Source of the DNA: a virus
Taxonomy: Duplodnaviria > Heunggongvirae > Uroviricota > Caudoviricetes
Virus record (IMG/VR): IMGVR_UViG_2721755651_000013
DNA length: 22,378 bases
Direction: 5' to 3' (one strand)
Shown here: one piece after another, positions 143 through 20,941 of the stretch
Position numbering within the stretch: the stretch's first letter is position 1
How the letters are laid out: the number at the start of each line of letters is the position of its first letter
Made by a program: the position numbers and the translations under genes
The notes under the pieces: generated by a model
Databases searched by the model: none
What the model saw: only the letters and a program-made list of their open reading frames with translations
What the model was told of the DNA's origin: nothing

Positions 143-675
143 ACCAATAATCGCCACCAACACAATGATTTTAATACATAAATTAAAATAGAAGATTTAA
201 ACTACACACACCCCTATACACATTGGTGAAGGCGTTCGCTTTCCGCGCATTCTCAAGGCAGAAAAAACTTTTTTTGGGGGAAAACTGTTCATACTACTCA
301 TTGTGTTTTTTTTCATTAATATTCAAAAAGATATGAAATTAACGATTGATAAGAAGTGAACACTTTACTGTTCACCTTGACTGATTAATAAGTGCATAAA
401 AACCTAATTTTTGAGCACGGAAGGTATTTGTTCCTTACCCCATTTTTTCTCTTTAGTCCAGTACAACAAAAAATGCGCCCAACAGAAAACTGTTTTGAAT
501 TTAAATGCAATCGCTTTGTAGTGATTGTAACGTAAGTTGATTTGATGGGTGCGATTTTGTTTAGCGATAATGGTATGTTGTAAAAATCATTTCGTTGCAA
601 TAAAATTGCATCGCTACATTTTATAGACAATATCAATTAAATTTTAATACTCATTATTAATTTTGAGGCTAACAA

Positions 676-1764: not shown

Positions 1765-4098
1765 TTATTTCGCTGCAAACTCATCGCATTTTGGCAACCA
1801 GTCAGCATTGCTTTCCTCTCTTAGGGCCAGATTAGTCTGCATTCCTTGATTGGTCCGTCGTTTCTCATACTGCAGCCCATATTCCTTGAGCATTAACGGT
1901 AGCCCCTTGCCAAACATGGTCAGACTGAGCGTATTTTTATAGCCGTTAGCCTCCATGTAGACCAGATAGGCATGGTAGAGGTAAGTTCGAGGCTGACGTG
2001 GAACAATATTAGCGTTCCCCATAAACATGCCCGTGGTGTCAGGTAGGACCTCAAGGTAGCCGCAAAAATCAAAAGCTGAATCAGCATCACGTTTGATGGT
2101 GAGCGCTTCATCGGAGTTCTGCTGTGACTGAAGCAATGTCCTGGCACTCATTGGGTCGCTGAAACGCTGCATAAGCTGGCGAACAATCACCGCTAGCTCA
2201 CTGGCAATTTTCTCTTTGAGCTGGGTATCGCGTTCCTCCGGGGCTATCTGGTCGGGGAAATGCAGGATCACCCTTCGGCGTGAAACTCCACCACTACGAT
2301 CAGTGAAGCGCATCGGATTATTGTTCACAGCCAGGATGACCGCCGGGATGTGGGTTGAATAGGCGTTCTGATATTTGGGATCAACGGATACCGCATCGCC
2401 GCCAGTGATGGCTTTTAGTCCGGCCCCGTCACCGCTCCACTTTTCCTGGTCGGGAAGTCGAATCAGTGAAAAACCTATTAACGCAGCTCGTTCTCTTGGC
2501 GACTCAAGCATTTCAATGGTTGCCGAGGTCGCGTTATCTTCACCCGCCAGCATGGTTGCTATTTCAGCAAGAATACTCTTTCCACTTCCGCCAGGGCCAG
2601 TGACCTCCAGAAACAGCTGCCAGTCATAACGGTTAGCCAGCACCATAAACAATGCAGCCAGAATAATGTCCCGTTTTTCAGGATTAAAACCTGCGGCACG
2701 ATCCAGCCAGCGCCAGAATGCCGGGGCATGGGTTTCCAGTGACTCACCGTCAACGGGCTGCGTGTAATCCACCTCGCACAGCGTACGTAACCAGTGCTTC
2801 TTATCGTGCGGGCTGAACAATCCTGTCCGGGTATCGAGCACACCGTTGCGAAATCCGATAAGTTGCCGCGCCGGATTCTGCTGTTGCGGAACGATCAGTT
2901 TGAGGGTTTCCACGAGAGACGCAATTTTCGCGGATGAAAAAGGTGCGTCGAGGCGCTGAAACAGCGCAGCGACATCACGGGCAAAATCGGCGTAATAGAT
3001 AACTTTCCAGGCCCCCGCCTCATAGCGTGAAAGGAGCTGCCCGTTCGGGTCTACTGCCAGTGAATTTTTATAGTGATCCACTACCCTCTGCGCTTTTTCG
3101 CTGACGCTCAGCGCGGTAAATTCAGCTTCGCTCATTGTGTCGAAGGGGCTGGCAACAGCTGGTTTTATTACTTCATGAATTGCATGCCGGGTGGCTTCTT
3201 CGCCGTTTTGCGTGAATGCATCGTTCCAGTCACCAAACACAGGCGGGAGCGCCATTGTGCAATTGCAGGCCCCGGTAACAGCTGCGCCCCTTGTTTGCCC
3301 CGCACCGTTGAGATCGCGGTCAGCAGCAATAATTATCTGGTGCGTTGGGTACTCACTGCAGGCAATGCTCGCCAGGGAAAGGAAATTGACGGACGAAAAG
3401 GCCACCATGACAGCATCGCCAGTCAGATAGTTGATAGTAAGTGCGGTGGCATATCCTTCCGCTATCCAGAGCCGTTTGGCTGCTTTGGCAGTACCTTCAA
3501 CCAGGTAAAAGGCATTCTTAACCTGACCGCCTTTAAGGAAGCATTTGCCCCCATTAGCGTTGATTAACTGCAGATTTACCAGCTCTCCATCTGCATACAA
3601 TGGAACGACAAGATCTCCCGCGCGAAATGCCACACCACCGACTTTATGCATAGCGGTTAATTCCCGGCAAGGCAGTGCAGGAAACCCTTTACTCGTCAGA
3701 TAGGCATTGCCAGTGGTCTGGCGGGACTTATCAAACAAACGGGCAGCCAGCACTGCTGCAGCTTTTCTCCCGTCCTCTTTTTCAGGAGAACCAGATTCAA
3801 GCATTCCCTGAGATACTGGCAGCAGGTTTCCGATAATGCCGTTTATTCTGTCTGCCGCTTCACTAATGCCTACATCCAGTACTTTACTTACAAGCGCCAG
3901 GCCATCACCTGCCCCGCACTGGTTACAGAACCACGTTCCCCGCCCTTCCTGGTCATCAAATCGAAAGCGGTCTTTCCCGGCACAGACCGGGCAGGGCTGG
4001 TGCCGATTTTTCAGTACATTTACGCCCAGCGCAGGTAAAATTCTTGACCAGTGACCCCGAGCTGCTTTCTCAGCCTGGCTAACTTTCATTCCTGACAT
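1765..4098 (-). CDS. P4 alpha-type bifunctional primase/helicase (zinc-binding primase domain + TOPRIM + D5-type NTPase)
   Basis: Protein has CPVCAGKDRFRFDD...FCNQCG zinc motif, Walker A GPGGSGKS, and overall P4 alpha-like layout. Start moved to the ATG at 4096..4098 because AAGGAGG lies 8 nt upstream; this gives 777 aa. The ORF-track start at 4155 is probably an upstream extension. Confidence 0.9.
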   Translation of the reverse strand: MSGMKVSQAEKAARGHWSRILPALGVNVLKNRHQPCPVCAGKDRFRFDDQEGRGTWFCNQCGAGDGLALVSKVLDVGISEAADRINGIIGNLLPVSQGMLESGSPEKEDGRKAAAVLAARLFDKSRQTTGNAYLTSKGFPALPCRELTAMHKVGGVAFRAGDLVVPLYADGELVNLQLINANGGKCFLKGGQVKNAFYLVEGTAKAAKRLWIAEGYATALTINYLTGDAVMVAFSSVNFLSLASIACSEYPTHQIIIAADRDLNGAGQTRGAAVTGACNCTMALPPVFGDWNDAFTQNGEEATRHAIHEVIKPAVASPFDTMSEAEFTALSVSEKAQRVVDHYKNSLAVDPNGQLLSRYEAGAWKVIYYADFARDVAALFQRLDAPFSSAKIASLVETLKLIVPQQQNPARQLIGFRNGVLDTRTGLFSPHDKKHWLRTLCEVDYTQPVDGESLETHAPAFWRWLDRAAGFNPEKRDIILAALFMVLANRYDWQLFLEVTGPGGSGKSILAEIATMLAGEDNATSATIEMLESPRERAALIGFSLIRLPDQEKWSGDGAGLKAITGGDAVSVDPKYQNAYSTHIPAVILAVNNNPMRFTDRSGGVSRRRVILHFPDQIAPEERDTQLKEKIASELAVIVRQLMQRFSDPMSARTLLQSQQNSDEALTIKRDADSAFDFCGYLEVLPDTTGMFMGNANIVPRQPRTYLYHAYLVYMEANGYKNTLSLTMFGKGLPLMLKEYGLQYEKRRTNQGMQTNLALREESNADWLPKCDEFAAK

Positions 4099-4111: not shown

Positions 4112-4435
4112 TTAGTGCAGCGCTGGTTTGTTGAGGTGACGGGAACAAAGTTCATCCATGACCGTCATTCCGAGCAGTGAGAGAACCGGACAGGCTTTAA
4201 GCGGCCCCGACTCCATCAGATCCGAAAGCAACGCGCAGGCAATTTCCAGCCCTCTTTGCTGCCCATGCTGGCGCAGATAGAACCCTTCCAGCTCGCGGGC
4301 TATGGCATCTTCAAGTTCAGCGAGCGTCAGGCCGGAATAACGTTCCTGATGATTGCTTAGAGCCAGCCAGGCACAGGCAACGGCACGGCGATACAGAGCG
4401 GCACGAAGTGCCAGAAGAGATTCACAGCATATCAT
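4112..4435 (-). CDS. Small hypothetical protein of the P4-like early (alpha) operon
   Basis: 107-aa ORF, GGAGGTG Shine-Dalgarno about 7 nt upstream, TGATG stop/start overlap with upstream ORF, same strand as and directly upstream of alpha. Function not assignable from sequence. Confidence 0.55.
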
Positions 4436-4656
4436 CAGGCCACCTCCGCATTCATCAGGTCGTCATGGCAGCGTTGCACCACTCCATCCAGTTGCTCTGT
4501 CATCAGATAAATGAGGGAAACCAGTTGTTCGCATTGGGCACCTGCTGGCTTTTCATAACAGTCCTGCAGGGCTGCCATGCCAGTTACATACTCACCCACA
4601 TTGCGTAAATGTTTCAGCCTTACAACATCGTCGTAGGAAATCTCAAACTGGTTCAT
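4435..4656 (-). CDS. Small hypothetical protein of the P4-like early operon
   Basis: 73-aa ORF with strong GGGGAGGTGA Shine-Dalgarno about 7 nt upstream of the ATG; coupled to the downstream ORF by a 1-nt overlap. Confidence 0.55.
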
Positions 4657-5206
4657 AGCGTCACCTCCCCGGCAGGCAGCCGTGCAGAAAGGGAGAGTAC
4701 ATAATCTCGGACTAGCAAACGGCGCGCGGAACGCTCATCGCAGGAGACAGTGCGAAGCATACAGATGCGGGGGTGAGTGTCAGCACGGCGGATTGCGGCA
4801 AACACAAAGACATATTGCGGGTGTGACGGGGTGAGGATTGTAGCCATGATGGCAGCCTCCAATAAGTAGCGGTTATTGCTACCACCGGAAACGCCAATTT
4901 CACTGGTGGCAGCCCGAACGGGGTTGGCGTAACCGGCCTTATTGGAAACCGGCCAGCCCGAAGGCTGCCCCGCCCGGACTACCATTATCTCGATAGAACC
5001 ATGGTGTAAGCATAAACACCACAGCCCTGAAAATGGTTGTGCCTGAGCTACGACGTAAAAAAAGACGCAAGGGGCGTCAATTGTCGCCAATAAGTTATAC
5101 GGAACGCCAATTCCGGCTGCCGATTTTGCGACAGCGGAAAAACTATACCTGGAAATGACGACAGTAAGCAAGCCAGAATAAAGGTATTTAATGTATGCAG
5201 GTATCA

Positions 5207-5467
5207 TCATGCATCACATCCCCGCCCACGGGCGCTGATGCGGTCCGCCATCCATGCGCTGACCTCAGACTGTGCCCAGGCGACATTTTTACCGCCAAGC
5301 GGGATCTGCTTCGGAAACGCATCGCGGCTGATCAGGTCGTAAACGGTCGAACGGGACAACCCGCATAAGTGCATCACCTCAGGCAGGCGTAAAAATCGCT
5401 CATGATGGTTCGATACAGGAAATAATGGCGCAGCAGGAGCTGGCGCAGACACAGAAATATTACGCAT
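5207..5467 (-). CDS. alpA: AlpA-family phage transcriptional regulator (MerR-like HTH)
   Basis: 86 aa; LRLPEV...GLSRSTVY...FP...W signature pattern of AlpA/prophage CP4-57-type regulators; sits divergent from the late operon, as in P4-like elements. Confidence 0.75.
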
Positions 5468-6020
5468 TTATCTACCCTCTTTAATTTCCACAACAGTCCG
5501 GATGAATTTATCCGGGTTCAGGTAGTTCCTTATTATGTGTATATAAACCACCTGCGCACGCATTTTTTATTTAGCGTCACATATTGATTTTATGGAATTT
5601 AAAGCCCGATTAAACCATATAAAATGACATAATAAATACCATGCCTGCGGACTATAAATACAGGAGCATTAATAGGAACTACCATTCACCCAGGGTTTAC
5701 TATCCTATGGGTCATTGCACCTGATAGTGCTAACCCCACCGCCAATACAGCAAGGCAGTACAACTTCTACACGAGGCCTTGCATTGCAGGCCCCAATTTC
5801 CGGGCATATTTTTGAATCGCATCCAACTTATAAACATTGGGCCTGCATAAAAACCTTGATATTAAATAACATCACCTTAAATCGTAAAATATATCCGAAT
5901 GAATCCATAAAGAACCGGACAGATCTAGTTTTATAAAAATCAGTATGAAATGCAACACCATGGCCAGAGGCGAAAATGTTATTCCCCGGCAAAAACATGC
6001 AGTCTATTTATGTGCCTGTT

Positions 6021-6054
6021 GAATACTCCTGAATAAGGGTGAATAGTGGTGAGG
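6021..6054. repeat. Three GAATA motifs at 10-bp phasing ending in GGTGAATAGTGGTGAGG; iteron-like
   Basis: gaatactcct gaataagggt gaatagtggt: GAATA at 6021, 6031, 6041 (helical phasing); GGTGAATA resembles the reverse complement of the P4 ori/crr octamer TGTTCACC (one mismatch, as I recall it). Confidence 0.35.
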
Positions 6055-6215
6055 AGCAAAAAACAAATAGCTACGAGGAATAAAAAAACCACCCATTATG
6101 AAAAAATACCATAAATAATTTTATTCCCATGTGAACAGTTATGAACAGTCGATGAATACTGCCATGCCAACCCTTCACCTTATAACCTTCTGTATTACCT
6201 ATTTTTTTTACCTAA

Positions 6216-6235
6216 GTGAATAGTAGTGAATAGTT
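6216..6235. repeat. Tandem 10-bp direct repeat GTGAATAGTA/GTGAATAGTT (iteron-like, same motif as 6039..6047)
   Basis: Two adjacent copies of GTGAATAGT seen directly; the same 9-mer also occurs at 6039..6047. Location in the alpA-sid intergenic region suits a replication or regulatory protein-binding array. Confidence 0.4.
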
Positions 6236-6312
6236 AAGGTAAGTCTGAAACAGCCTTAGTTAAACGAGGCCTTTTCTGGCTAGCCAAAAGAGGTCCGGGG
6301 CGGTTCAGTCTT

Positions 6313-6380
6313 TGTCTTGTCGCTCGCACAATGGCGTTCAATGGCAGCTTTGTATGCATCACAGCACAATTGACACCACG
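6313..6380 (+). promoter_or_regulatory. Putative Delta/Ogr-activated late promoter (Psid-like) with a TGT-N12-ACA dyad
   Basis: TGTcttgtcgctcgcACA at 6313..6330 and a second TGT-N12-ACA at 6351..6368; the first dyad is centred about 80 nt upstream of the sid ATG, i.e. near -55 if transcription starts about 25 nt upstream; CACAAT as a possible -10 at 6365..6370. The TGT-N12-ACA spacing is the known P2/P4 late-activator site pattern. Confidence 0.45.
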
Positions 6381-6400: not shown

Positions 6401-7153
6401 ATGACAATCCCAGAACAGAACAATAACCCGATCGTTGAAATTTCTATCCCTGTTTCGACGCAACAGGCGCTTGAGAAAGTGAATGCCACCAAATCTGCAT
6501 GGCTTGAAGCACGTCGTCAGCAAAAAGCGGCAGCGGATAATATTGCGACAATCCGCCAGCGCCGCGCTGAAATGGAAGCCACGACGAACGCCCTGAATGA
6601 GGAGTGGCGCACGCTATTTCGTGAAAGTCAGGGCGTAGTCTCAAAGGAAATGAAAAAACTGCGCACGGAAATTGCGCTGGGACGAGAAACGCTTGAGGAT
6701 TTTGATGAGCTGCTGGCGGCTCAGGAAAGCGAAAATGCACTTTTGCCGCAGGAGGCTGCGGAATTAGCCGGAAAGTATATCCACGCGCACGACACCCTTG
6801 TGGGTATTCGCGCAAAACAAATCTGGGAAGATTTTATGCAGTCGCATGGAAAAGCACTAATCCAGACACTAAGCCTGCTCAAATCAACAATGGGCAGGGA
6901 AGCCAGCGCAGTTGTCGGTGTGGTGCATTCAGTTAATGACCCGGACACACTGCTGAAAGATTTTATTCATAAACATATCACCAGACCGGCTCTGACTAAC
7001 GATGCGATGCCCGAACAGGACCCCGTGTTTAAACTGGCGGGAGTTGCCCCGGATTATGCGGCCCGTCTGGATTTCAGTAATAAACTCTCTCCAGCAGCTA
7101 TGCATAAAATGAAGGTTCGTCAGGAACGTGCTGAGAAGGAGAAAGCAGTATGA
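6401..7153 (+). CDS. sid: Sid-like capsid size-determination (external scaffold) protein
   Basis: 250 aa (P4 Sid is about 244 aa); first gene after the late promoter; shares the AWL...DFMQ.HG.AL motif with the next ORF, consistent with Sid and Psu being related; AGGTG Shine-Dalgarno. Confidence 0.65.
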   Translation: MTIPEQNNNPIVEISIPVSTQQALEKVNATKSAWLEARRQQKAAADNIATIRQRRAEMEATTNALNEEWRTLFRESQGVVSKEMKKLRTEIALGRETLEDFDELLAAQESENALLPQEAAELAGKYIHAHDTLVGIRAKQIWEDFMQSHGKALIQTLSLLKSTMGREASAVVGVVHSVNDPDTLLKDFIHKHITRPALTNDAMPEQDPVFKLAGVAPDYAARLDFSNKLSPAAMHKMKVRQERAEKEKAV

Positions 7154-7701
7154 TGGCCCGAGTCACTCCAGACCAAGCGCTTATCAGTTTTAGAAATGCC
7201 CGTATTCTGTGGGCTGGACATAGTGAGAGCCGAAAAGCCGTTGAACAACAGATAGAATCACTCCTCACTGCCATGGAAAAACCAGCAGATTATGCTCGAC
7301 AGCTCGAATTACAGCGGGAACATCTGGATGTGCTGAAATGGCAAATTAACTGTGCTGCGCGCGAATGCATTTACTCGCAGCATCAACTGATGGAGGCCTG
7401 CACAGAAGACGCTCTCAGCAATTTTATGCAGGCGAATGGAGCAGCCCTGACATCTGCACTGGCTCCGTTCCTGAAGGGGCGCGGAGGGGTTGACGTTGCG
7501 TCCCGTATATTACGCAATGCTCTGGTTCGCCAGCTGGCAATAACACCGCCTGAAATTGCCGGGGATTATCGTATGATTCTGGATGAATCCGGTGTGATGC
7601 CTGACCCCATGATGGTTCGTGATTGCCAGAGCTCTTACACCCCTGCACAACAACTGCGCTTTCAGCAACGTCTGGATTACATTAACGGCATGCAGGAGTA
7701 A
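7150..7701 (+). CDS. psu: Psu-like polarity suppression / capsid decoration protein
   Basis: 183 aa (P4 Psu about 190 aa); FMQANGAALTSALAPFL and a C-terminal TPAQQ segment resemble what I recall of P4 Psu; ATGA start/stop overlap with sid. Confidence 0.7.
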   Translation: MMARVTPDQALISFRNARILWAGHSESRKAVEQQIESLLTAMEKPADYARQLELQREHLDVLKWQINCAARECIYSQHQLMEACTEDALSNFMQANGAALTSALAPFLKGRGGVDVASRILRNALVRQLAITPPEIAGDYRMILDESGVMPDPMMVRDCQSSYTPAQQLRFQQRLDYINGMQE

Positions 7702-7706
7702 TATTA

Positions 7707-7979
7707 ATGGCACTTAAATGTCCCGAATGCGGTACGACGGCACACGCCAGAACCTCCGCCTATGAAGCACCATCGGTTAAACGCTCATGGTATCAGTGCC
7801 AGAATCTTGAATGTTCCTACACATTTACCGCACTGGAAAGTGTGGATACGATAATCATGAAGCCCCGGCGCAATGAACAGGAATCAGAGAAAGCACAAAT
7901 GCCGGAAAAACAACAGCAAACTCTCAATCGCTATGGCTCCGCGTCAAAGCTGTCAAGCCGTCAGCAAATTCCTGTCTGA
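7707..7979 (+). CDS. delta: Delta/Ogr-family zinc-finger late transcriptional activator
   Basis: N-terminus CPECGTTAHARTS...YQCQNLECSYTF is the C2-C2 Ogr/Delta zinc-finger signature; GGAG Shine-Dalgarno 7 nt upstream. Confidence 0.85.
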   Translation: MALKCPECGTTAHARTSAYEAPSVKRSWYQCQNLECSYTFTALESVDTIIMKPRRNEQESEKAQMPEKQQQTLNRYGSASKLSSRQQIPV

Positions 7980-8388: not shown

Positions 8389-8955
8389 TTAAACAGGATA
8401 AAAACCAGAGCTTCCATTCTTATTTAAGTTATGGATTTTATTTGCATCATTAATTTTTATTTGGAACGTCGGACCTTTATTCTCAAGAATTACAATCTGG
8501 AAATTATAGTCCCTTTTGATTAATGCGTGATAAAATGAATCACTGAGACTGACGCTATTAACATCCGATAGAGAACCCCCTCTATCTTTATCAAAGTGCG
8601 TCACTAATGGACTATCAAGCACAACAAATCCAATGAATGGATTCCCTTTTCTTGATAAAAATTCCGCAAAGCAAATGGTAAATATAGCATGCATTACTGC
8701 ACGGGTACCTTTACCAAACATTCCTCGGCGTTTCCCATTGATATTAAAGTCATATGTATCTTCGTCAAATCGCACTTTGTTATCTTTAGAATTTTCAAAA
8801 TTTATATCATTCAAAAAGTCTTGCATCGCTATTTCTATATCATACAAATCAGCTACTGTTAAGGAGTCAAAGTCCTCGGCGGAGTATTTAAGTTCGTCAA
8901 CATCATCTTCTTTATCTTGTAATGAAGATAGAATGCTATGTTTTGTGTGATCCAT
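8389..8955 (-). CDS. C-terminal ABC/SMC-type ATPase head segment (putative Walker B/D-loop region) of the cargo ATPase
   Basis: 188 aa; GMFGKGTRAVMHAIF (signature-like) followed by NPFIGFVVLDSPLVTHFD (hydrophobic strand + Asp, Walker-B-like); TAATG stop/start overlap with the upstream ORF; no Shine-Dalgarno; reading frame is open about 20 codons upstream of the ATG. Confidence 0.5.
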   Translation of the reverse strand: MDHTKHSILSSLQDKEDDVDELKYSAEDFDSLTVADLYDIEIAMQDFLNDINFENSKDNKVRFDEDTYDFNINGKRRGMFGKGTRAVMHAIFTICFAEFLSRKGNPFIGFVVLDSPLVTHFDKDRGGSLSDVNSVSLSDSFYHALIKRDYNFQIVILENKGPTFQIKINDANKIHNLNKNGSSGFYPV

Positions 8956-9545
8956 TAAAAGATTGTCTTTATATTCATAAAGTGATTCAAGAGATGAATG
9001 TATTGTTTTATATTTTTATCTTCTAACGTCTTAAAATCACTTTTTTCTGATTGATAAATTTCATTAACATCATTTTTTCTTAACATAATTAATTCATGTT
9101 CGCGAACATTAGATCCGATTGATTCAATTAATCCTTTCAGCTGGCTTTTGATTTTCAATTTTTCTGCATTACACGACAAAAAACAATCATCATATGATAT
9201 TTCATTTTCTTTTTTTTGCGGTGTATTACAGAACTCACAATAAATATCTGCAAAATTATTTAAATAGAAATTCGCCTGTGATACAACATCTATTCTTTGT
9301 AGATCTATAAAGTATTGGTCTTTAAGAAGACTAAATCTTTCAATGAGTAATGATAAGTATTTTTCCCTGTCACTGATTGAATATAATTCATCACTTAACT
9401 CTTTTAATAATTGCTTCTTATCATCAAGTGCATCAACAATACCTTTCAATATATCTTTCGATGATTCAATATCTTGCTCTACTTTCTCAAGTTCTCTTGA
9501 AACAATGACTTGATCATATTCAGGATAAATTAATTGCGCTTTCAA
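8955..9545 (-). CDS. Coiled-coil segment of the cargo SMC-like ATPase (no canonical start; same frame as the upstream ORF, separated by one TAA)
   Basis: 196 aa, highly charged (E/K/D/L-rich) helical heptad-like sequence; ORF-track start is TTG with no usable Shine-Dalgarno spacing; in frame with 9576..10208. Confidence 0.45.
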   Translation of the reverse strand: MKAQLIYPEYDQVIVSRELEKVEQDIESSKDILKGIVDALDDKKQLLKELSDELYSISDREKYLSLLIERFSLLKDQYFIDLQRIDVVSQANFYLNNFADIYCEFCNTPQKKENEISYDDCFLSCNAEKLKIKSQLKGLIESIGSNVREHELIMLRKNDVNEIYQSEKSDFKTLEDKNIKQYIHLLNHFMNIKTIF

Positions 9546-9575
9546 TTCCTCATAAATATTTGCAATTTGATTTTT

Positions 9576-10208
9576 TTAAAAATATCTTGCTTTTTTATTT
9601 GGTTTTTCTGCTAAGGAGTTAGTATCATCTCTCTGAGTTAAAAGGAATTTAAATTCAGACTTTCTTTTTGTCTCCTCGCTAGGAATATCAGAAAGAATTA
9701 ACGACTTCTCAGTTAACACTCTTAATTCATCAATACAAAAAAATTCAAAAACATTATTAAGATTAAATTTATGAAGAGTATTACTTAAGTTTGTTCTTAC
9801 TTTAGCCTCTTTGAAATTCAACCTACCATAAAAGTATGATGAAAAACTCTTTTTAGACGAAGCACTTTTGGAAAAAACCATCAACAGATTAGCTTCACTA
9901 ACATTTTCAATGCTCGAATCATATAATCTGTAATGGGCGCTATCCTGAAGAGACCTCTCAATTGTCATTACCCTACCTTGAAAATTAAATTCCAGATAGG
10001 CTAAATCATAACCTTGAGCATGATCGATATCTTTATTTTTTAGTTTTTCACTCCCTAATAAATATCGAATCAAATAATATATGTATGTTTTTCCAGAGTC
10101 AGAACCACCATATAAAATAGTCAATTTAGAACCAAATTCAATTATAGCATCTAATTTATTGAATCCGGTTACCTTTATTTTTCTGAACGTAAAAAAATTG
10201 TCATTCAT
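9576..10208 (-). CDS. N-terminal ABC/SMC-type ATPase head with Walker A (GGSDSGKT)
   Basis: MNDNFFTFRKIKVTGFNKLDAIIEFGSKLTILYGGSDSGKTYIYYL is the canonical N-terminal strand plus P-loop layout of RecF/SbcC/SMC-like ABC ATPases; start moved to the ATG at 10206..10208, which overlaps the upstream stop (ATGAATGA). Confidence 0.65.
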   Translation of the reverse strand: MNDNFFTFRKIKVTGFNKLDAIIEFGSKLTILYGGSDSGKTYIYYLIRYLLGSEKLKNKDIDHAQGYDLAYLEFNFQGRVMTIERSLQDSAHYRLYDSSIENVSEANLLMVFSKSASSKKSFSSYFYGRLNFKEAKVRTNLSNTLHKFNLNNVFEFFCIDELRVLTEKSLILSDIPSEETKRKSEFKFLLTQRDDTNSLAEKPNKKARYF

Positions 10209-10659
10209 AATTAAATTCCATATCATATTTGCCAATTTTATTTTTTATAATTGATTGCAACTGCTCATCAGGAATATCACTATATAACTTAACCACCAAA
10301 TTTATATTATGCTCCATCTGCGCAACATATTCATTATGTAGAGAATTTGTAAATGCATATGTTTTTTCAGAAGCTTTATATACAAAACCACGATGTGTAT
10401 AAATTTTTGAGGCTAGTTCATAGCCTTGCAACAAAGCCAATGATTCTAAAACAATCTCTCGTTTTAGGGCTAACTGAGCATCTCTACGGGGTATTGGAGG
10501 ATGAAGACTAATCTCTTCAGGTAAAAAATCCTTAAGATTTACTAAAATAAAATCAAAACAAATAAGCCGTTCAAGGCTTAATGAAGAAGGATAAATAGCG
10601 ACGAGCACTTTCGCCATTCGACATGCCACTTCTAAACTTGAATTATAAATTCTAACCAT
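10201..10659 (-). CDS. Small alpha-helical protein, putative middle component (LmuC-like) of a three-component ATPase system
   Basis: 152 aa when started at the ATG at 10657..10659 (TAATG overlap with upstream stop, GGTGAG upstream); located between the nuclease-like ORFs and the ATPase, as in ABC-3C/Lamassu type II loci. Assigned by position and size only. Confidence 0.5.
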   Translation of the reverse strand: MVRIYNSSLEVACRMAKVLVAIYPSSLSLERLICFDFILVNLKDFLPEEISLHPPIPRRDAQLALKREIVLESLALLQGYELASKIYTHRGFVYKASEKTYAFTNSLHNEYVAQMEHNINLVVKLYSDIPDEQLQSIIKNKIGKYDMEFNYE

Positions 10660-11276
10660 TATCTCACCGTCCAAATTACTTCACCATCATTAACCAAATG
10701 ATGGCATATTCCTTTTTTATCATTTGCTTCACATATTTTTGATAGTACTGAATGTGCAATTGGTGTCAGAACAGCCTGCTTCAAGACTGCATTACACCTA
10801 ATAAATGCATAATTATGGTCTTCATAAAAGACGGGTTCAATTGAAGATGAAATGTAACATTTCAATGCTTTGAATACATCATCTTTAAATACTTCGCGGA
10901 CAAAAACCTCAAGCGAAGATGCAAAATAAAAATCATTTCTACTATTATTAAAGTGTCGTCTGTATGGATCATCAAGCTCTAAGAAAGAACTATAAGTTTT
11001 ATTTCCATGCTCTGAATAGGCTTGAAGCAGTGCATTAACATATACAGACTCTTTTTTTGAATTGTATGTTGGAATTTCATTTGGAGGGATTCTCACGACA
11101 TACAGCTCGTTAAAGTACTTAAAATAAAGGTGTGTATTTGCAATATCATTTAAAATCAATGATAAGGGTAGAGAGTAAAAAATACTAAAATCAAAATCCT
11201 CAATATATTTTTTTATTTCATCATCTAATGGAATATCAATCTTTTTAGTTATTTTTTTGAAATTGCTGAATCCCAT
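10659..11276 (-). CDS. Hypothetical protein; probably the C-terminal part of the effector, reachable by a -1 shift from 11249..11665
   Basis: 205 aa; only one Met (the start) and no Shine-Dalgarno; overlaps the upstream ORF by 28 nt in the -1 frame across an A7 tract. Confidence 0.5.
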   Translation of the reverse strand: MGFSNFKKITKKIDIPLDDEIKKYIEDFDFSIFYSLPLSLILNDIANTHLYFKYFNELYVVRIPPNEIPTYNSKKESVYVNALLQAYSEHGNKTYSSFLELDDPYRRHFNNSRNDFYFASSLEVFVREVFKDDVFKALKCYISSSIEPVFYEDHNYAFIRCNAVLKQAVLTPIAHSVLSKICEANDKKGICHHLVNDGEVIWTVR

Positions 11277-11665
11277 GAATCAAGGACTGCTTTTTTAAGC
11301 TCGTTTTTATTTTTCAATAAATTAGAAAATGTAGTAGATAAATCATAGGGTGCCACAAAAAAGTACTTCTGAGGGATGGGATAATCACCATTCAGAGTAA
11401 AATAGATAAGTTTTCCAAACTCAACTACAACATCAGAGAACCCTAAACTTTTTTTGTACAGTTTGCATTGATAATTATCCCAAGAATAACCTTCTACGTT
11501 AGGATCCGATTTATATCCAACAACGTCTCTACCTTTATCTCCAGCTCCTCCCAAACGTTCGCTCCACGGGTAATCATCTGATTTACAGACAATAAGCCAA
11601 TCATGGACAAATACCTCCCATTGTTCATCATCCCATGTCAATATTTCCGAAAGTGGTTGAGACAC
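11249..11665 (-). CDS. Mrr-like PD-(D/E)xK nuclease domain protein (putative effector N-terminal domain)
   Basis: 138 aa; WEVFVHDWL...GGAGDKGRDVVGY...YQCKLY matches the E ... G-D-x-G-x-D ... Q-x-K pattern of Mrr-type restriction-endonuclease catalytic domains; GTG start with AAGGAG 7 nt upstream, embedded in the 3' end of int. Confidence 0.6.
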   Translation of the reverse strand: MSQPLSEILTWDDEQWEVFVHDWLIVCKSDDYPWSERLGGAGDKGRDVVGYKSDPNVEGYSWDNYQCKLYKKSLGFSDVVVEFGKLIYFTLNGDYPIPQKYFFVAPYDLSTTFSNLLKNKNELKKAVLDSWDSAISKK

Positions 11666-11668
11666 AAA

Positions 11669-12850
11669 TTAACTCCTTTTTAGTCTTTCAAATATCAAAT
11701 TACTGTACCAGTCCATCATAGACTTCCTTCCACTAAAATATTGAGCATGGTTATAAGTCCCCCTAATAGAATTTTTATCTACATGAGCCAACTGGATTTC
11801 AATCCAAGCACTCTCAAAACCTTGCTCATGCAGGATTGTAGAAAGGGTATGACGAAAACCATGTCCAGTGACTTTTCCTCCATACCCAATACGCTTAATG
11901 GCTTGATTTATACTCGCTTCGCTCATTGGCCTATTCGGATCGTTCCGCCCTGGAAAAACATAACGATAGTTCCCTGTCATGATCTTGAGTTCATTGAGTA
12001 AATCTACCGCTTGAGATGATAAGGGCACAAGATGTGGCCTACGCATTTTCATCCTTTCAGCAGGAATTTCCCAAATAGCGTTATCCAGATCAAATTCTTG
12101 CCATAATGCCGCGCGTAATTCGATGGTTCTCACACCCGTAATCATCAGTAATTTCGTGGCTATCTGGACAAGCTTACTCCCGGAGTAACCCTCTAAGGCA
12201 CGTAGAAAATCAGGTATCTCATCAGCTTTTAGGAATGGGAAATGATTGGATTGGTGTACTTCGAGAGCGCTGGAGAGATCAGCCGCAGGATTGTACTCCG
12301 CCCTACCCGTTGCAATTGCGTAGCGAAACACTTCGGAGCAACGCTGCCGCACTTTGCGCATTTTCTCCAACGCACCACGTTTCTCAATTTTACGCAGAAC
12401 GTTCAGCAGCTCTAGCGGTTTAATCTCTCCCACAGGCCTTGTTCCGACATAAGGAAAAATGTCGTTCTTAAACGCTTCCATGATGTCTGATGCATATCCC
12501 GCCGACCATTTAGCAGATTTAAGTTGATGCCACTCTCTGGCTATCTTTTCGAAGGCGTTCTCTGACTCTGTTTGCATAGCTAGCTTTTGCTCTTTTCGAA
12601 CCTCACTAGGGTTCTTTCCTTCTGCCACAAGTTTTCGAGCTTCATCACGACGGGAACGAGCATCGGCAAGGGTGATCGTTGGGTAAACACCAAGCGAGAT
12701 CATTTTGGGTTTGCCGGCATAGCGATAGCGGAACCGCCAACTCTTGCTTCCATTAGGTTCTATAAGTAATGACAACCCTAGCCCATCTCCAAATGTATAG
12801 GCTTTAGCTTCAGGCTTAGCGCGGCGAATCTGCATATCGTTTAAAGGCAT
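11669..12850 (-). CDS. int: P4-type tyrosine integrase
   Basis: N-terminus MPLNDMQIRRAKPEAKAY...DGLGLSLLIEPNGSKSWRFRYR is the P4-integrase N-terminal signature; C-terminal HGFRHT...Y catalytic motifs; start moved to the ATG at 12848..12850 (393 aa); adjacent to a tRNA-derived att. Confidence 0.9.
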   Translation of the reverse strand: MPLNDMQIRRAKPEAKAYTFGDGLGLSLLIEPNGSKSWRFRYRYAGKPKMISLGVYPTITLADARSRRDEARKLVAEGKNPSEVRKEQKLAMQTESENAFEKIAREWHQLKSAKWSAGYASDIMEAFKNDIFPYVGTRPVGEIKPLELLNVLRKIEKRGALEKMRKVRQRCSEVFRYAIATGRAEYNPAADLSSALEVHQSNHFPFLKADEIPDFLRALEGYSGSKLVQIATKLLMITGVRTIELRAALWQEFDLDNAIWEIPAERMKMRRPHLVPLSSQAVDLLNELKIMTGNYRYVFPGRNDPNRPMSEASINQAIKRIGYGGKVTGHGFRHTLSTILHEQGFESAWIEIQLAHVDKNSIRGTYNHAQYFSGRKSMMDWYSNLIFERLKRS

Positions 12851-12897
12851 GTGTATAGGAATCCAGACCGAACAGGAACATATACACAATCCTATAC
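12851..12897. repeat. 10-bp inverted repeat GTGTATAGGA-N27-TCCTATACAC immediately upstream of int
   Basis: Exact inverted repeat seen directly, with a third TATACACA copy between; a likely int promoter/operator or arm-type site. Confidence 0.4.
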
Positions 12898-13012
12898 ACA
12901 TTCAGTACCGGATTCTACTGGATGGTTACGGACTACTATGGACTTAAAAGAATAAAAAATGTTATAAATCAGAGATTTTATGGACTAATACGGACGTTTG
13001 AGGAAGTTGAGA

Positions 13013-13058
13013 TGGTGCCGATAATAGGAGTCGAACCTACGACCTTCGCATTACGAAT
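13013..13058 (-). other. 3' 46 nt of a tRNA-Thr(CGU)-like gene (anticodon loop to CCA): att core of the P4-like element; the tRNA 5' half is absent
   Basis: Reverse complement reads ATTCGTAATGCGAAGGTCGTAGGTTCGACTCCTATTATCGGCACCA: T-arm GTAGG-TTCGACT-CCTAT, acceptor 3' strand, CCA; upstream sequence cannot pair as acceptor, D or anticodon-stem 5' strands. Confidence 0.6.
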
Positions 13059-15432: not shown

Positions 15433-16319
15433 TCAGGCTGCCAGATCATCGTTTCCGATGGAAGCATAATAAGCTTTTTCTGCTTCTGCCGGAGGAGTAT
15501 GGCCCAGCCTTCCCAGCAATCGTCGATTGTTATACCAGTCCACCCACGTTAGTGTGGCCAGTTCCACTTCTGCACGGTTTTTCCAGCTCTTACGGTGTAT
15601 TACCTCCGCTTTGTAAAGACCATTGATGCTCTCAGCCATCGCGTTGTCATACGAGTCGCCTGTACTCCCTGTTGATGCCAGTAATCCGGCTTCTTTTAGT
15701 CGCTCCGTATAGGCCAGTGACACATACTGAGAGCCTTTATCGCTGTGATGGATGGTGCCAGACGGACGACGGGCCCACAACGCCTGCTCCAGCGCATCCA
15801 GCACGAATGTCGTTTCCATAGACGATGAGACCCGCCACCCCACGATGTATCCGGCAAACACATCAATGATAAACGCCACATAGACGAAGCCCTGCCATGT
15901 GCTGACGTAAGTAAAATCAGCCACCCACAGCTGGTCAGGTCGTTCTGCCACGAACTGACGGTTTACGCGGTCGCCTGCGGCAACGGCTTTCCGGCTGATG
16001 GTCGTACGGACCTTTTTACCCCGGAGAACACCGGCAAGTCCCATAACCGCCATGAGACGTGCCACTGTACATCTGGCCACCCTGATTCCTTCCCGTAACA
16101 ACTGACGCCAGACTTTACGCACACCGTACACCTGATGATTTTCATCGTATACGCGCTGTATCTCTCTCTTCAGCCAGTCGTCGTGCTGCGCACGGGCACT
16201 GCGTTTATCCGGATGATGTCGCTGTTGCTGACAATGGTAATACGTTGACGGGGCAATATGCAGTTCGCTGCATACCGGTCCGACCCCGTACTGCTCACGC
16301 AGCTTATCCAGCAGTGGCA

Positions 16320-16323
<4 letters not shown>
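15433..16323 (-). CDS. IS3-family transposase OrfB (DDE integrase core)
   Basis: 296 aa with the characteristic IS3 OrfB layout; overlaps orfA in the -1 frame across an A6 tract (TGGAAAAAATGATG), the usual frameshift window. Confidence 0.9.
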
Positions 16324-17466
<1,143 letters not shown>

Positions 17467-19727: not shown

Positions 19728-20054
19728 ATGACTAAAAATACTCGTTTTTCCCCCGAAGTCCGTCAGCGGGCGATTCGTATGGTTCTGGAAAGTCAGGATG
19801 AATATGACTCACAGTGGGCGGCAATTTGTTCCATTGCCCCAAAGATTGGCTGTACGCCGGAGACTCTGCGTGTCTGGGTTCGCCAGCATGAGCGGGATAC
19901 CGGGGGCGGTGATGGTGGGCTCACCAGCGCTGAACGTCAGCGTCTGAAAGAGCTGGAACGTGAAAATCGTGAACTGCGCCGCAGTAACGATATCCTTCGC
20001 CAGGCTTCCGCTTATTTTGCGAAGGCGGAGTTCGACCGCCTCTGGAAAAAATGA
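19728..20054 (+). CDS. IS3-family transposase OrfA
   Basis: Identical 108-aa protein to 16320..16646. Confidence 0.9.
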
Positions 20055-20941
20055 TGCCACTGCTGGATAAGCTGCGTGAGCAGTACGGGGTCGGACCGGT
20101 ATGCAGCGAACTGCATATTGCCCCGTCAACGTATTACCATTGTCAGCAACAGCGACATCATCCGGATAAACGCAGTGCCCGTGCGCAGCACGACGACTGG
20201 CTGAAGAGAGAGATACAGCGCGTATACGATGAAAATCATCAGGTGTACGGTGTGCGTAAAGTCTGGCGTCAGTTGTTACGGGAAGGAATCAGGGTGGCCA
20301 GATGTACAGTGGCACGTCTCATGGCGGTTATGGGACTTGCCGGTGTTCTCCGGGGTAAAAAGGTCCGTACGACCATCAGCCGGAAAGCCGTTGCCGCAGG
20401 CGACCGCGTAAACCGTCAGTTCGTGGCAGAACGACCTGACCAGCTGTGGGTGGCTGATTTTACTTACGTCAGCACATGGCAGGGCTTCGTCTATGTGGCG
20501 TTTATCATTGATGTGTTTGCCGGATACATCGTGGGGTGGCGGGTCTCATCGTCTATGGAAACGACATTCGTGCTGGATGCGCTGGAGCAGGCGTTGTGGG
20601 CCCGTCGTCCGTCTGGCACCATCCATCACAGCGATAAAGGCTCTCAGTATGTGTCACTGGCCTATACGGAGCGACTAAAAGAAGCCGGATTACTGGCATC
20701 AACAGGGAGTACAGGCGACTCGTATGACAACGCGATGGCTGAGAGCATCAATGGTCTTTACAAAGCGGAGGTAATACACCGTAAGAGCTGGAAAAACCGT
20801 GCAGAAGTGGAACTGGCCACACTAACGTGGGTGGACTGGTATAACAATCGACGATTGCTGGGAAGGCTGGGCCATACTCCTCCGGCAGAAGCAGAAAAAG
20901 CTTATTATGCTTCCATCGGAAACGATGATCTGGCAGCCTGA
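20051..20941 (+). CDS. IS3-family transposase OrfB
   Basis: Identical 296-aa protein to 15433..16323. Confidence 0.9.

Follow-up and report, generated by a model that had tools for sequence, protein, structure and literature searches.

A probable P4-type replication origin with alpha iterons in the alpA–sid spacer of a P4-like satellite prophage of Escherichia coli O157:H7

A long spacer between the alpA and sid genes of a satellite prophage contains several copies of short, regularly phased words, and the question raised by this locus is what those words are. In the window (the whole 22,378-bp stretch of viral DNA that was analysed), the initial annotation had singled out a 9-mer, GTGAATAGT, and had suggested that the spacer could hold either the replication origin (ori) or the cis-replication region (crr) of the element. 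We consider it very probable that the region from approximately 6020 to 6234 is the replication ori of a P4-like satellite, orthologous to P4 ori, and that its repeats are iterons for the alpha protein. This reading is supported by position, by sequence homology and by family-wide conservation; our confidence in the joint claim, ori together with alpha iterons, stops short of certainty because of caveats on function, namely weak iterons, a low origin score and data on the Sakai prophage Sp2. The repeats are an element of a kind already known, and they had been correctly read.

The satellite, its ends and the alpA–sid spacer

From its gene neighbourhood and Pfam matches, the window was identified as an E. 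coli O157:H7 prophage of the P4-like satellite kind. In 296 E. coli records, mostly O157:H7 among the matches listed, the spacer and the sequence flanking it were found at an identity of at least 99%. Judging from its gene set, its ogr-type gene and its size, the element is probably Sakai prophage Sp2 (PMC2669165). The gene order common to the window and P4 is alpha, DUF5375, Ash/Icd with a C4-type RNA, alpA, the spacer, sid, psu and ogr/delta. The minus strand carries the alpha primase-helicase gene (1765–4098; Pfam Zn_Ribbon_Prim, Toprim, D5_N, DUF5906 and Pox_D5), a DUF5375 gene just upstream of alpha (4112–4435; Pfam DUF5375, E = 2e-49) that is a homologue of P4 ORF106, an annotated Ash/Icd-like ORF (4653–5210) and a gene of the AlpA family (5207–5467). 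On the plus strand are a Sid-like gene of the Sid/Psu family (6401–7153), psu (7150–7701) and ogr/delta (7707–7979), followed on the minus strand by Lamassu-type defence cargo (8389–11665) and a tyrosine integrase gene (11669–12901); the alpA, sid, psu, ogr/delta and integrase assignments come from Pfam and annotation. Full-length ORFs are present for alpha, the cnr-like gene, alpA, sid, psu, ogr/delta and int. The gene coordinates place 930 bp between alpA and sid and confirm the location given in the initial annotation. No feature is annotated in the spacer in the RefSeq record inspected for the element, no RNA family was matched in Rfam up to E = 1 between 5400 and 6450, and two small spacer ORFs (5715–5936, plus strand; 5828–5998, minus strand) matched no PHROG family.

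The Ash/Icd-like ORF contains two Rfam matches on the minus strand, one to C4 antisense RNA (4902–4989, 84 bits) and one to isrK (5058–5135, 72 bits). This stretch probably corresponds to the RNA-based immunity region of P4, and the annotation of an Icd-like/Ash protein may therefore be partly spurious.

The ends of the element were sought in direct repeats. An imperfect repeat, TGGTG(C)CGATAATAGGA, occurs at 127–142 and 13013–13029, and these att repeats appear to bound an element of approximately 12.9 kb. The right-hand copy is formed by a tRNA-Thr gene of which only a 3' fragment (13013–13053) is present; no intact tRNA was found in the window. A 12-mer, CCTATACACATT, lies beside both ends (213–224 and 12891–12902), with an inverted GTGTATAGG at 12851–12859, and these repeats are putative integrase arm-type sites. 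Beyond the satellite, two ALIL pseudoknot matches with identical scores are inverted with respect to each other (16249–16365, minus strand; 20009–20125, plus strand). ALIL pseudoknots are frameshift signals of the IS3 family, and the pair indicates two IS3-family copies flanking about 3.6 kb.

Within the defence hotspot (8389–11665, minus strand) the Lamassu-type genes are broken up: LmuA is spread over two ORFs (11249–11665 and 10659–11276) and LmuB over three (9576–10235, 8955–9545 and 8389–8955), while LmuC is intact (10201–10674), all on the minus strand. RefSeq labels parts of this cargo 'ABC-three component system'. The cargo looks like a decayed defence system, a state that is rare in P4-like satellites according to a recent survey.

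Repeat words and their register with the P4 origin

Counts in the window bore out what the initial annotation had reported of the repeat words. GTGAATAGT occurs exactly three times, at 6039–6047, 6216–6224 and 6226–6234 on the plus strand, and nowhere else in the window, compared with 0.19 copies expected per dinucleotide-preserving shuffle; none of 100 shuffles reached three. Its last two copies lie in a perfect tandem pair of AGTGAATAGT (6215–6234; period 10, 100% match, Tandem Repeats Finder). The 10-bp phasing described for GAATA is exact, with TGAATA starting at 6020, 6030 and 6040. A looser motif, TGAAYAST, was matched 11 times against 2.9 expected, a count again reached in none of 100 shuffles, and its placement is uneven, with seven matches in 6020–6234, three in 284–374 (within a crr-like unit described below) and one elsewhere. 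By the simple bound C(11,7) × 7 × (215/22378)^6, the probability of seven out of 11 sites falling within 215 bp is of the order of 1e-9.

The core of the 9-mer had been said to differ by a single base from the complement of the P4 octamer. This is true of GGTGAATA (6038–6045), which is one base away from GGTGAACA, the reverse complement of TGTTCACC, but not of the tandem copies, which read AGTGAATA and have two mismatches to GGTGAACA. The P4 record lists GGTGAATA twice within crr (4366–4373 and 4546–4553), under the label 'ori type 1 repeat'. With T in place of C, GTGAATAGT is a naturally occurring variant of GGTGAACAG(T), the type-1 iteron of P4. A full-text literature search for TGTTCACC returned only unrelated primer sequences among the matches listed.

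The P4 record (GenBank NC_001609) allows the comparison to be made position by position. Its rep_origin feature (9086–9809) is the ORF88(alpA)–sid spacer and includes three 10-bp 'type 2' repeats at 9176–9205 and six 'type 1' octamers at 9310, 9320, 9331, 9353 (opposite strand), 9396 and 9406. Pairwise alignment of window 6130–6234, a core of about 105 bp, with P4 9310–9413 placed all iterons in register, with the CTGTATTAC...TTTTTT block identical. The arrangement of six iterons, three direct, one inverted and two direct, is that of P4 in number, order, spacing and orientation, and the words themselves have one or two mismatches. Each iteron was scored with a position matrix trained on 300 iterons from satellites outside the sub-clade of the window. 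Iteron 1 (TGTGAACAGT, 6130–6139, plus strand; 13.4 bits) corresponds to the P4 type-1 repeat at 9310–9317. Iteron 2 (TATGAACAGT, 6140–6149, plus strand; P4 9320–9327) is weak, at 7.1 bits, with A for a near-invariant G at position 2, and iteron 3 (GATGAATACT, 6151–6160, plus strand; P4 9331–9338) is weak as well, at 6.4 bits; aligned over 6130–6160, the window reads TGTGAACAGT / TATGAACAGT / (c)GATGAATACT and P4 reads GGTGAACAGT / GGTGAACAGA / (c)GGTGAACAGT. Iteron 4 is inverted (6170–6179; GGTGAAGGGT on the minus strand, 10.9 bits), and its plus-strand form CCTTCACC (6172–6179) is aligned with P4 TGTTCACC at 9353–9360. A non-iteron block, TTATAACCTTCTGTATTACCTATTTTTTTTACCTA (6180–6214; G+C 0.25), follows in the P4 alignment and has the family form CTTTAACTTACTGTATTACTTATCTTTTT (57 loci); a further aligned segment reads CTGTATTACCTATTTTTTTT in the window and CTGTATTACTTATCTTTTTT in P4. 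Iterons 5 and 6 are the two AGTGAATAGT units (6215–6234, plus strand; 14.2 bits each), opposite GGTGAACAGA GGTGAACAGT at P4 9396–9403 and 9406–9413. Since the core of the window is in register with the P4 repeats, the tandem pair at 6215/6225 supplies the fifth and sixth iterons of a P4-type ori core.

The list of repeats first drawn up was correct for its three copies and incomplete, in that it missed two copies of TGAACAGT (6132 and 6142), TGAATACT (6153) and the inverted CCTTCACC, all of them closer to the P4 consensus. The three copies also do not form one group: those at 6216 and 6226 belong to core iterons 5 and 6, as grouped, but the copy at 6039 belongs to the third unit of a separate array of three 10-bp units. 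Over the whole window the matrix found six sites of at least 12 bits, at 355 and 367 (in the crr-like unit) and at 6038, 6130, 6215 and 6225 (in the ori region), where shuffles average 1.0.

Two further features of this region are conserved across the family. One is the CTGTATTAC sequence with its T-run at 6190–6209, between iterons 4 and 5; the other is a near-palindrome, CCTTTTCTGGCTAGCCAAAAGAGG, at 6270–6293, between the origin and the sid promoter.

The operons on the two sides of the region are transcribed away from each other, and the repeats might in principle be transcription-factor sites of divergent late promoters, bound by Delta/Ogr or AlpA/Vis at sid or alpA, rather than initiator sites. 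Delta/Ogr sites are dyads, conserved among relatives, of the form TGT-N12-ACA that precede a late transcription start by about 55 bp, and the segment 6130–6147 (TGTGAACAGTTATGAACA) fits the TGT-N12-ACA pattern; the tandem pair at 6215–6234, moreover, precedes the sid promoter boxes by about 100 bp. The fit at 6130–6147 is, however, an accident of iterons 1 and 2 that is not conserved in homologues: of 57 homologues, only 5 have TGT at the start of iteron 1, and 49 of the other 52 have GGT or AGT there. A pattern scan located two proper TGT-N12-ACA boxes on the plus strand, away from the iterons, at 6313–6330 and 6351–6368, the first of which aligns with P4 TGTGTCAGGGCTGGCACA and is conserved in relatives. 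The iteron motif is also found downstream of alpha, in the crr-like unit, a place without a late promoter. An assignment to integrase arm sites or to Vis was rejected as well, the arm repeats at P4 attP (ATGCCCCC type) being unrelated to the iterons and the P4 type-2 unit being absent near attP. We therefore regard a promoter-site explanation of the repeats as highly improbable and retain the ori reading. By analogy with P2 and P4 late promoters, the boxes at 6313 and 6351 are likely to be the sites at which Delta/Ogr activates the sid promoter; they delimit the origin on its right and lie outside it. Immediately before the first box, the O157:H7 sequence has a 15-bp insertion, GTCCGGGGCGGTTCA (6293–6307), that is absent from an otherwise identical O55:H7 element and from all other aligned relatives.

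Conservation of the core, the upstream array and the state of the origin

The initial annotation had suggested looking for the repeats in other P4-like satellites. We sampled 80 loci with relatives of alpha, one genome per species, together with P4 itself and several E. coli matches; the core was located by anchoring on the iteron triplet and then aligning. When words were counted with no prior motif, at least three copies of GTGAACA/CTGTTCA were present in the alpA-upstream spacer of 47 of 60 loci, and at least three copies of GTGAATA in 13 loci of the same set, which includes a duplicate of the window (L001). A six-iteron core of approximately 110 bp is common to 57 of 59 P4-like loci, with all four anchor features in 51; the repeats are therefore conserved in related satellites, and the lack of conservation that had been named as speaking against an origin was not borne out. 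The genera with this core include Escherichia, Enterobacter, Klebsiella, Citrobacter, Kluyvera, Kosakonia, Raoultella, Edwardsiella, Serratia, Erwinia and Yersinia. The variant found in the window is widespread: most loci have (A/G)GTGAATAGT at iteron 6 (34 of 57) and 6 of 57 have it at iteron 5, GTGAACAG and GTGAATAG interchange at orthologous positions among close relatives, and a satellite of Scandinavium manionii (L066) has the same AGTGAATAGT pair. A further 305 E. coli genomes match 6019/6131–6234 at 60–80% identity.

Short words recur easily in an A+T-rich spacer, and many two-copy repeats of 8–13 nt in it look like chance, so that chance or low complexity had to be considered for the iterons too. 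Dinucleotide-preserving shuffles never reached the observed counts, the sites are in register with the annotated iterons of P4, and they are kept in 57 of 59 loci across many genera; together these results refute an origin of the repeats by chance, to which we attach practically no weight.

In its architecture, then, P4 ori is kept across P4-like satellites of many Enterobacterales genera. Ori, crr and iterons go unmentioned in a large comparative study of P4-like satellites (PMC8628076). The six-iteron core could be used as a DNA marker for such satellites and as a guide for P4-based cosmid and phasmid vectors, and the present assignment would locate the ori, together with the crr and both ends, of the P4-like prophage that essentially all E. 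coli O157:H7 genomes carry. What is known of how P4-type origins work is unchanged by it.

Upstream of the core, at 6020–6049 on the plus strand, three tandem 10-bp units (TGAATACTCC TGAATAAGGG TGAATAGTGG) occupy the position of the P4 'type 2' repeats, 112 bp upstream of iteron 1. The third unit holds both GGTGAATA and the first GTGAATAGT copy. The unit, TGAATAnnGG, is unlike the P4 type-2 unit CACTTAAAG and resembles type 1; with the matrix trained on other satellites, GGTGAATAGT in the array scored 15.9 bits. The closest relatives keep the array with a change in copy number, L004 having one unit more than L006. Across the sample, 36 of 57 loci have a three-unit, 10-bp array with a score of 14 or more out of 20, a level reached in 0.4% of shuffles; its median distance upstream of iteron 1 is 135 bp. 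An array some 110–150 bp upstream of iteron 1 is a feature of most P4-like origins (loci L002–L083), and its unit sequence varies widely between satellites: CACTTAAAG in P4, TGGCAAAC-like in many, TGGCCATTAT, GGCACATTC, TGAATAnnGG and others. Between the array and the core, at 6050–6129, G+C falls to 0.20–0.30 (40-bp windows, 6060 to 6120), and this stretch is a candidate unwinding region.

These observations allow a broader and rather doubtful suggestion, that P4-like origins carry two recognition layers, a conserved type-1 core and, about 135 bp upstream, an array of constant place and phase but variable unit, and that the O157 clade has a re-wired origin. In such an origin the array may have been replaced by type-1-like GGTGAATA units while iterons 2–4 weakened. 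If so, the initiator would bind on both sides of the A+T-rich stretch, and the variable array would be an unrecognised determinant of specificity or incompatibility in P4-type replicons.

With approximately 380 bp of extra sequence (5468–5850), the sub-clade also has alpA about 660 bp away from the core; in P4 and most relatives the two are about 280 bp apart. An inverted copy of the 6037–6050 unit at 5678–5691 was judged not significant, being conserved no further than the nearest relatives and missing in L004, L006 and L062.

The weak iterons bear on whether the origin is still in use. By one rival account the locus would be an ori by descent that is now weakened or a dead relic, its iterons having drifted in a cryptic prophage that neither excises nor replicates, with no present function. 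Iterons 2–4 score only 6–11 bits, iterons 2 and 3 having A where 97% of family sites have G, and the summed score of the origin, 66 bits, ranks seventh from the bottom among 57, the median for the family being 97. All six core iterons depart from the P4 octamer by one or two mismatches, and exact TGTTCACC is absent from the ori. Neither with mitomycin C nor without it did Sp2 form circles, replicate or become packaged, and the prophage presumed to be its helper, Sp13, is defective (PMC2669165). The broken Lamassu ORFs and the tRNA-Thr gene reduced to a 3' fragment at the right end also fit a decaying element. The core genes, on the other hand, are all full-length (alpha, cnr-like, alpA, sid, psu, ogr/delta and int). 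The low-score tail is made up of the whole sub-clade (the window, L078, L003, L004, L006 and L062), and the 'weak' iteron forms are found also in relatives from other E. coli lineages and from Scandinavium (L078); forms common to relatives in this way point to a stable, clade-specific form rather than to recent decay. The clade has, besides, the extra type-1-like array upstream. Mitomycin C is not known to be the natural inducer of P4-type satellites, and the negative Sp2 result is therefore not a test of the origin. Overall we think it unlikely, though well worth keeping in mind, that the origin is weakened or dead, and we continue with the reading of the region as a P4-type ori with alpha iterons.

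Initiator, crr-like unit and comparison with known origins

The predicted initiator is encoded in the same element. The alpha ORF is intact (777 aa) and 73% identical to P4 alpha over 771 aa, and its C-terminus matches PDB 1KA8, the solved winged-helix origin-binding domain of P4 (E = 1e-47); by analogy this domain is expected to bind the iterons. A change of initiator specificity, co-evolving with the iterons of the clade, was considered and found no support. No clade-specific substitution was found in the origin-binding domain of alpha, so there is no sign of changed specificity, and the variant of the domain in the window is found also in satellites with canonical GTGAACAGT iterons. P4 ORF106 is a DUF5375 protein gene in the same position as the DUF5375 gene of the window, and we take it to be cnr, the copy-number regulator of P4.

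A site resembling crr is found elsewhere in the element. A single crr-like unit at 243–385 (plus strand) aligns with both 120-bp repeats of P4 crr and was matched by nhmmer, the window being among the sequences in the profile. It consists of an A-run/T-run followed by the iterons ATGAACAGT (minus strand, 284–292), AGTGAACACT (355–364) and an exact TGTTCACC (369–376), with matrix matches of 13.9 and 18.8 bits, and it lies inside the element, the left end of which is marked by the att repeat at 127–142. Of the two possibilities raised for the spacer, ori is the one upheld, the aligned core lying in the same spacer as the P4 rep_origin; crr is not, the crr-like unit being at 243–385. The region 6021–6235 is ori rather than crr: the crr profile matches 243–385 and not 6021–6235, and 2 kb separate the region, which precedes alpA, from the 5' end of alpha, while a P4 crr has its units of about 120 bp past the 3' end of alpha. 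The same profile also matches P4-type ori cores weakly.

A cargo ORF of 318 aa, A+T-rich, lies between the crr-like unit and alpha (676–1632). Neither Pfam nor PADLOC gave a family for it, and the PHROG match obtained was marginal and unannotated (E = 0.004). A minor 'primase to att site' hotspot is known in P4-like satellites (PMC13586616), and the position of this ORF fits it, although the cargo is here between alpha and crr, not between crr and att.

By analogy with P4, alpha would bind the iterons of the ori and the crr-like unit at 243–385 through its C-terminal winged-helix domain, its helicase domain would open the adjacent A+T-rich DNA, and its primase domain would lay primers from which host polymerase could copy the excised circle. 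Ziegelin and co-workers reportedly found in 2002 that ori and crr are both needed in cis in P4 and that Cnr modulates alpha binding; the DUF5375 (cnr-like) protein may do the same here. That alpha of P4 binds its repeats via the winged-helix domain, unwinds and primes is described in PMC4234260. Alpha binding, unwinding and any firing of this copy are what we infer.

Compared with P4 ori, the region has the same place, a spacer between an alpA/vis-type gene (ORF88) and sid, the same iteron spacings (10, 11, about 22, about 43 and 10), the CTGTATTAC/T-run block, a three-unit 10-bp array 110–135 bp upstream, and sid promoter boxes after the core. It differs in the iteron words, which are TGTGAACA, TATGAACA, GATGAATA, CCTTCACC and two copies of AGTGAATA in the window and GGTGAACA/TGTTCACC in P4, in the unit of the upstream array, TGAATAnnGG and type-1-like where P4 has CACTTAAAG, and in the distance from alpA to the iterons, about 660 bp in the window versus about 280 bp in P4. 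With P4 crr (4291–4590) the iteron word is shared, GGTGAATA being an annotated repeat there, and the order of att core, putative integrase arm repeat (CCTATACACATT, 213–224) and crr is the same in both elements. P4 has two 120-bp repeats, whereas the window has one unit, 1.4 kb from alpha with the cargo gene between; single units and displaced units are common in the P4-like family.

More widely, the iteron origins of plasmids and of phage-inducible chromosomal islands have direct repeats that bind the initiator, are helically phased, flank an A+T-rich stretch and lie near their own initiator genes. The present locus is similar in its helically phased short repeats on the flanks of an A+T-rich stretch and in its position beside initiator genes. 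It differs from them in two respects, according to the P4 literature, PMC4234260 included: the P4-type initiator is a fused primase-SF3 helicase with a winged-helix domain, and P4 requires a second, distant site in cis, crr.
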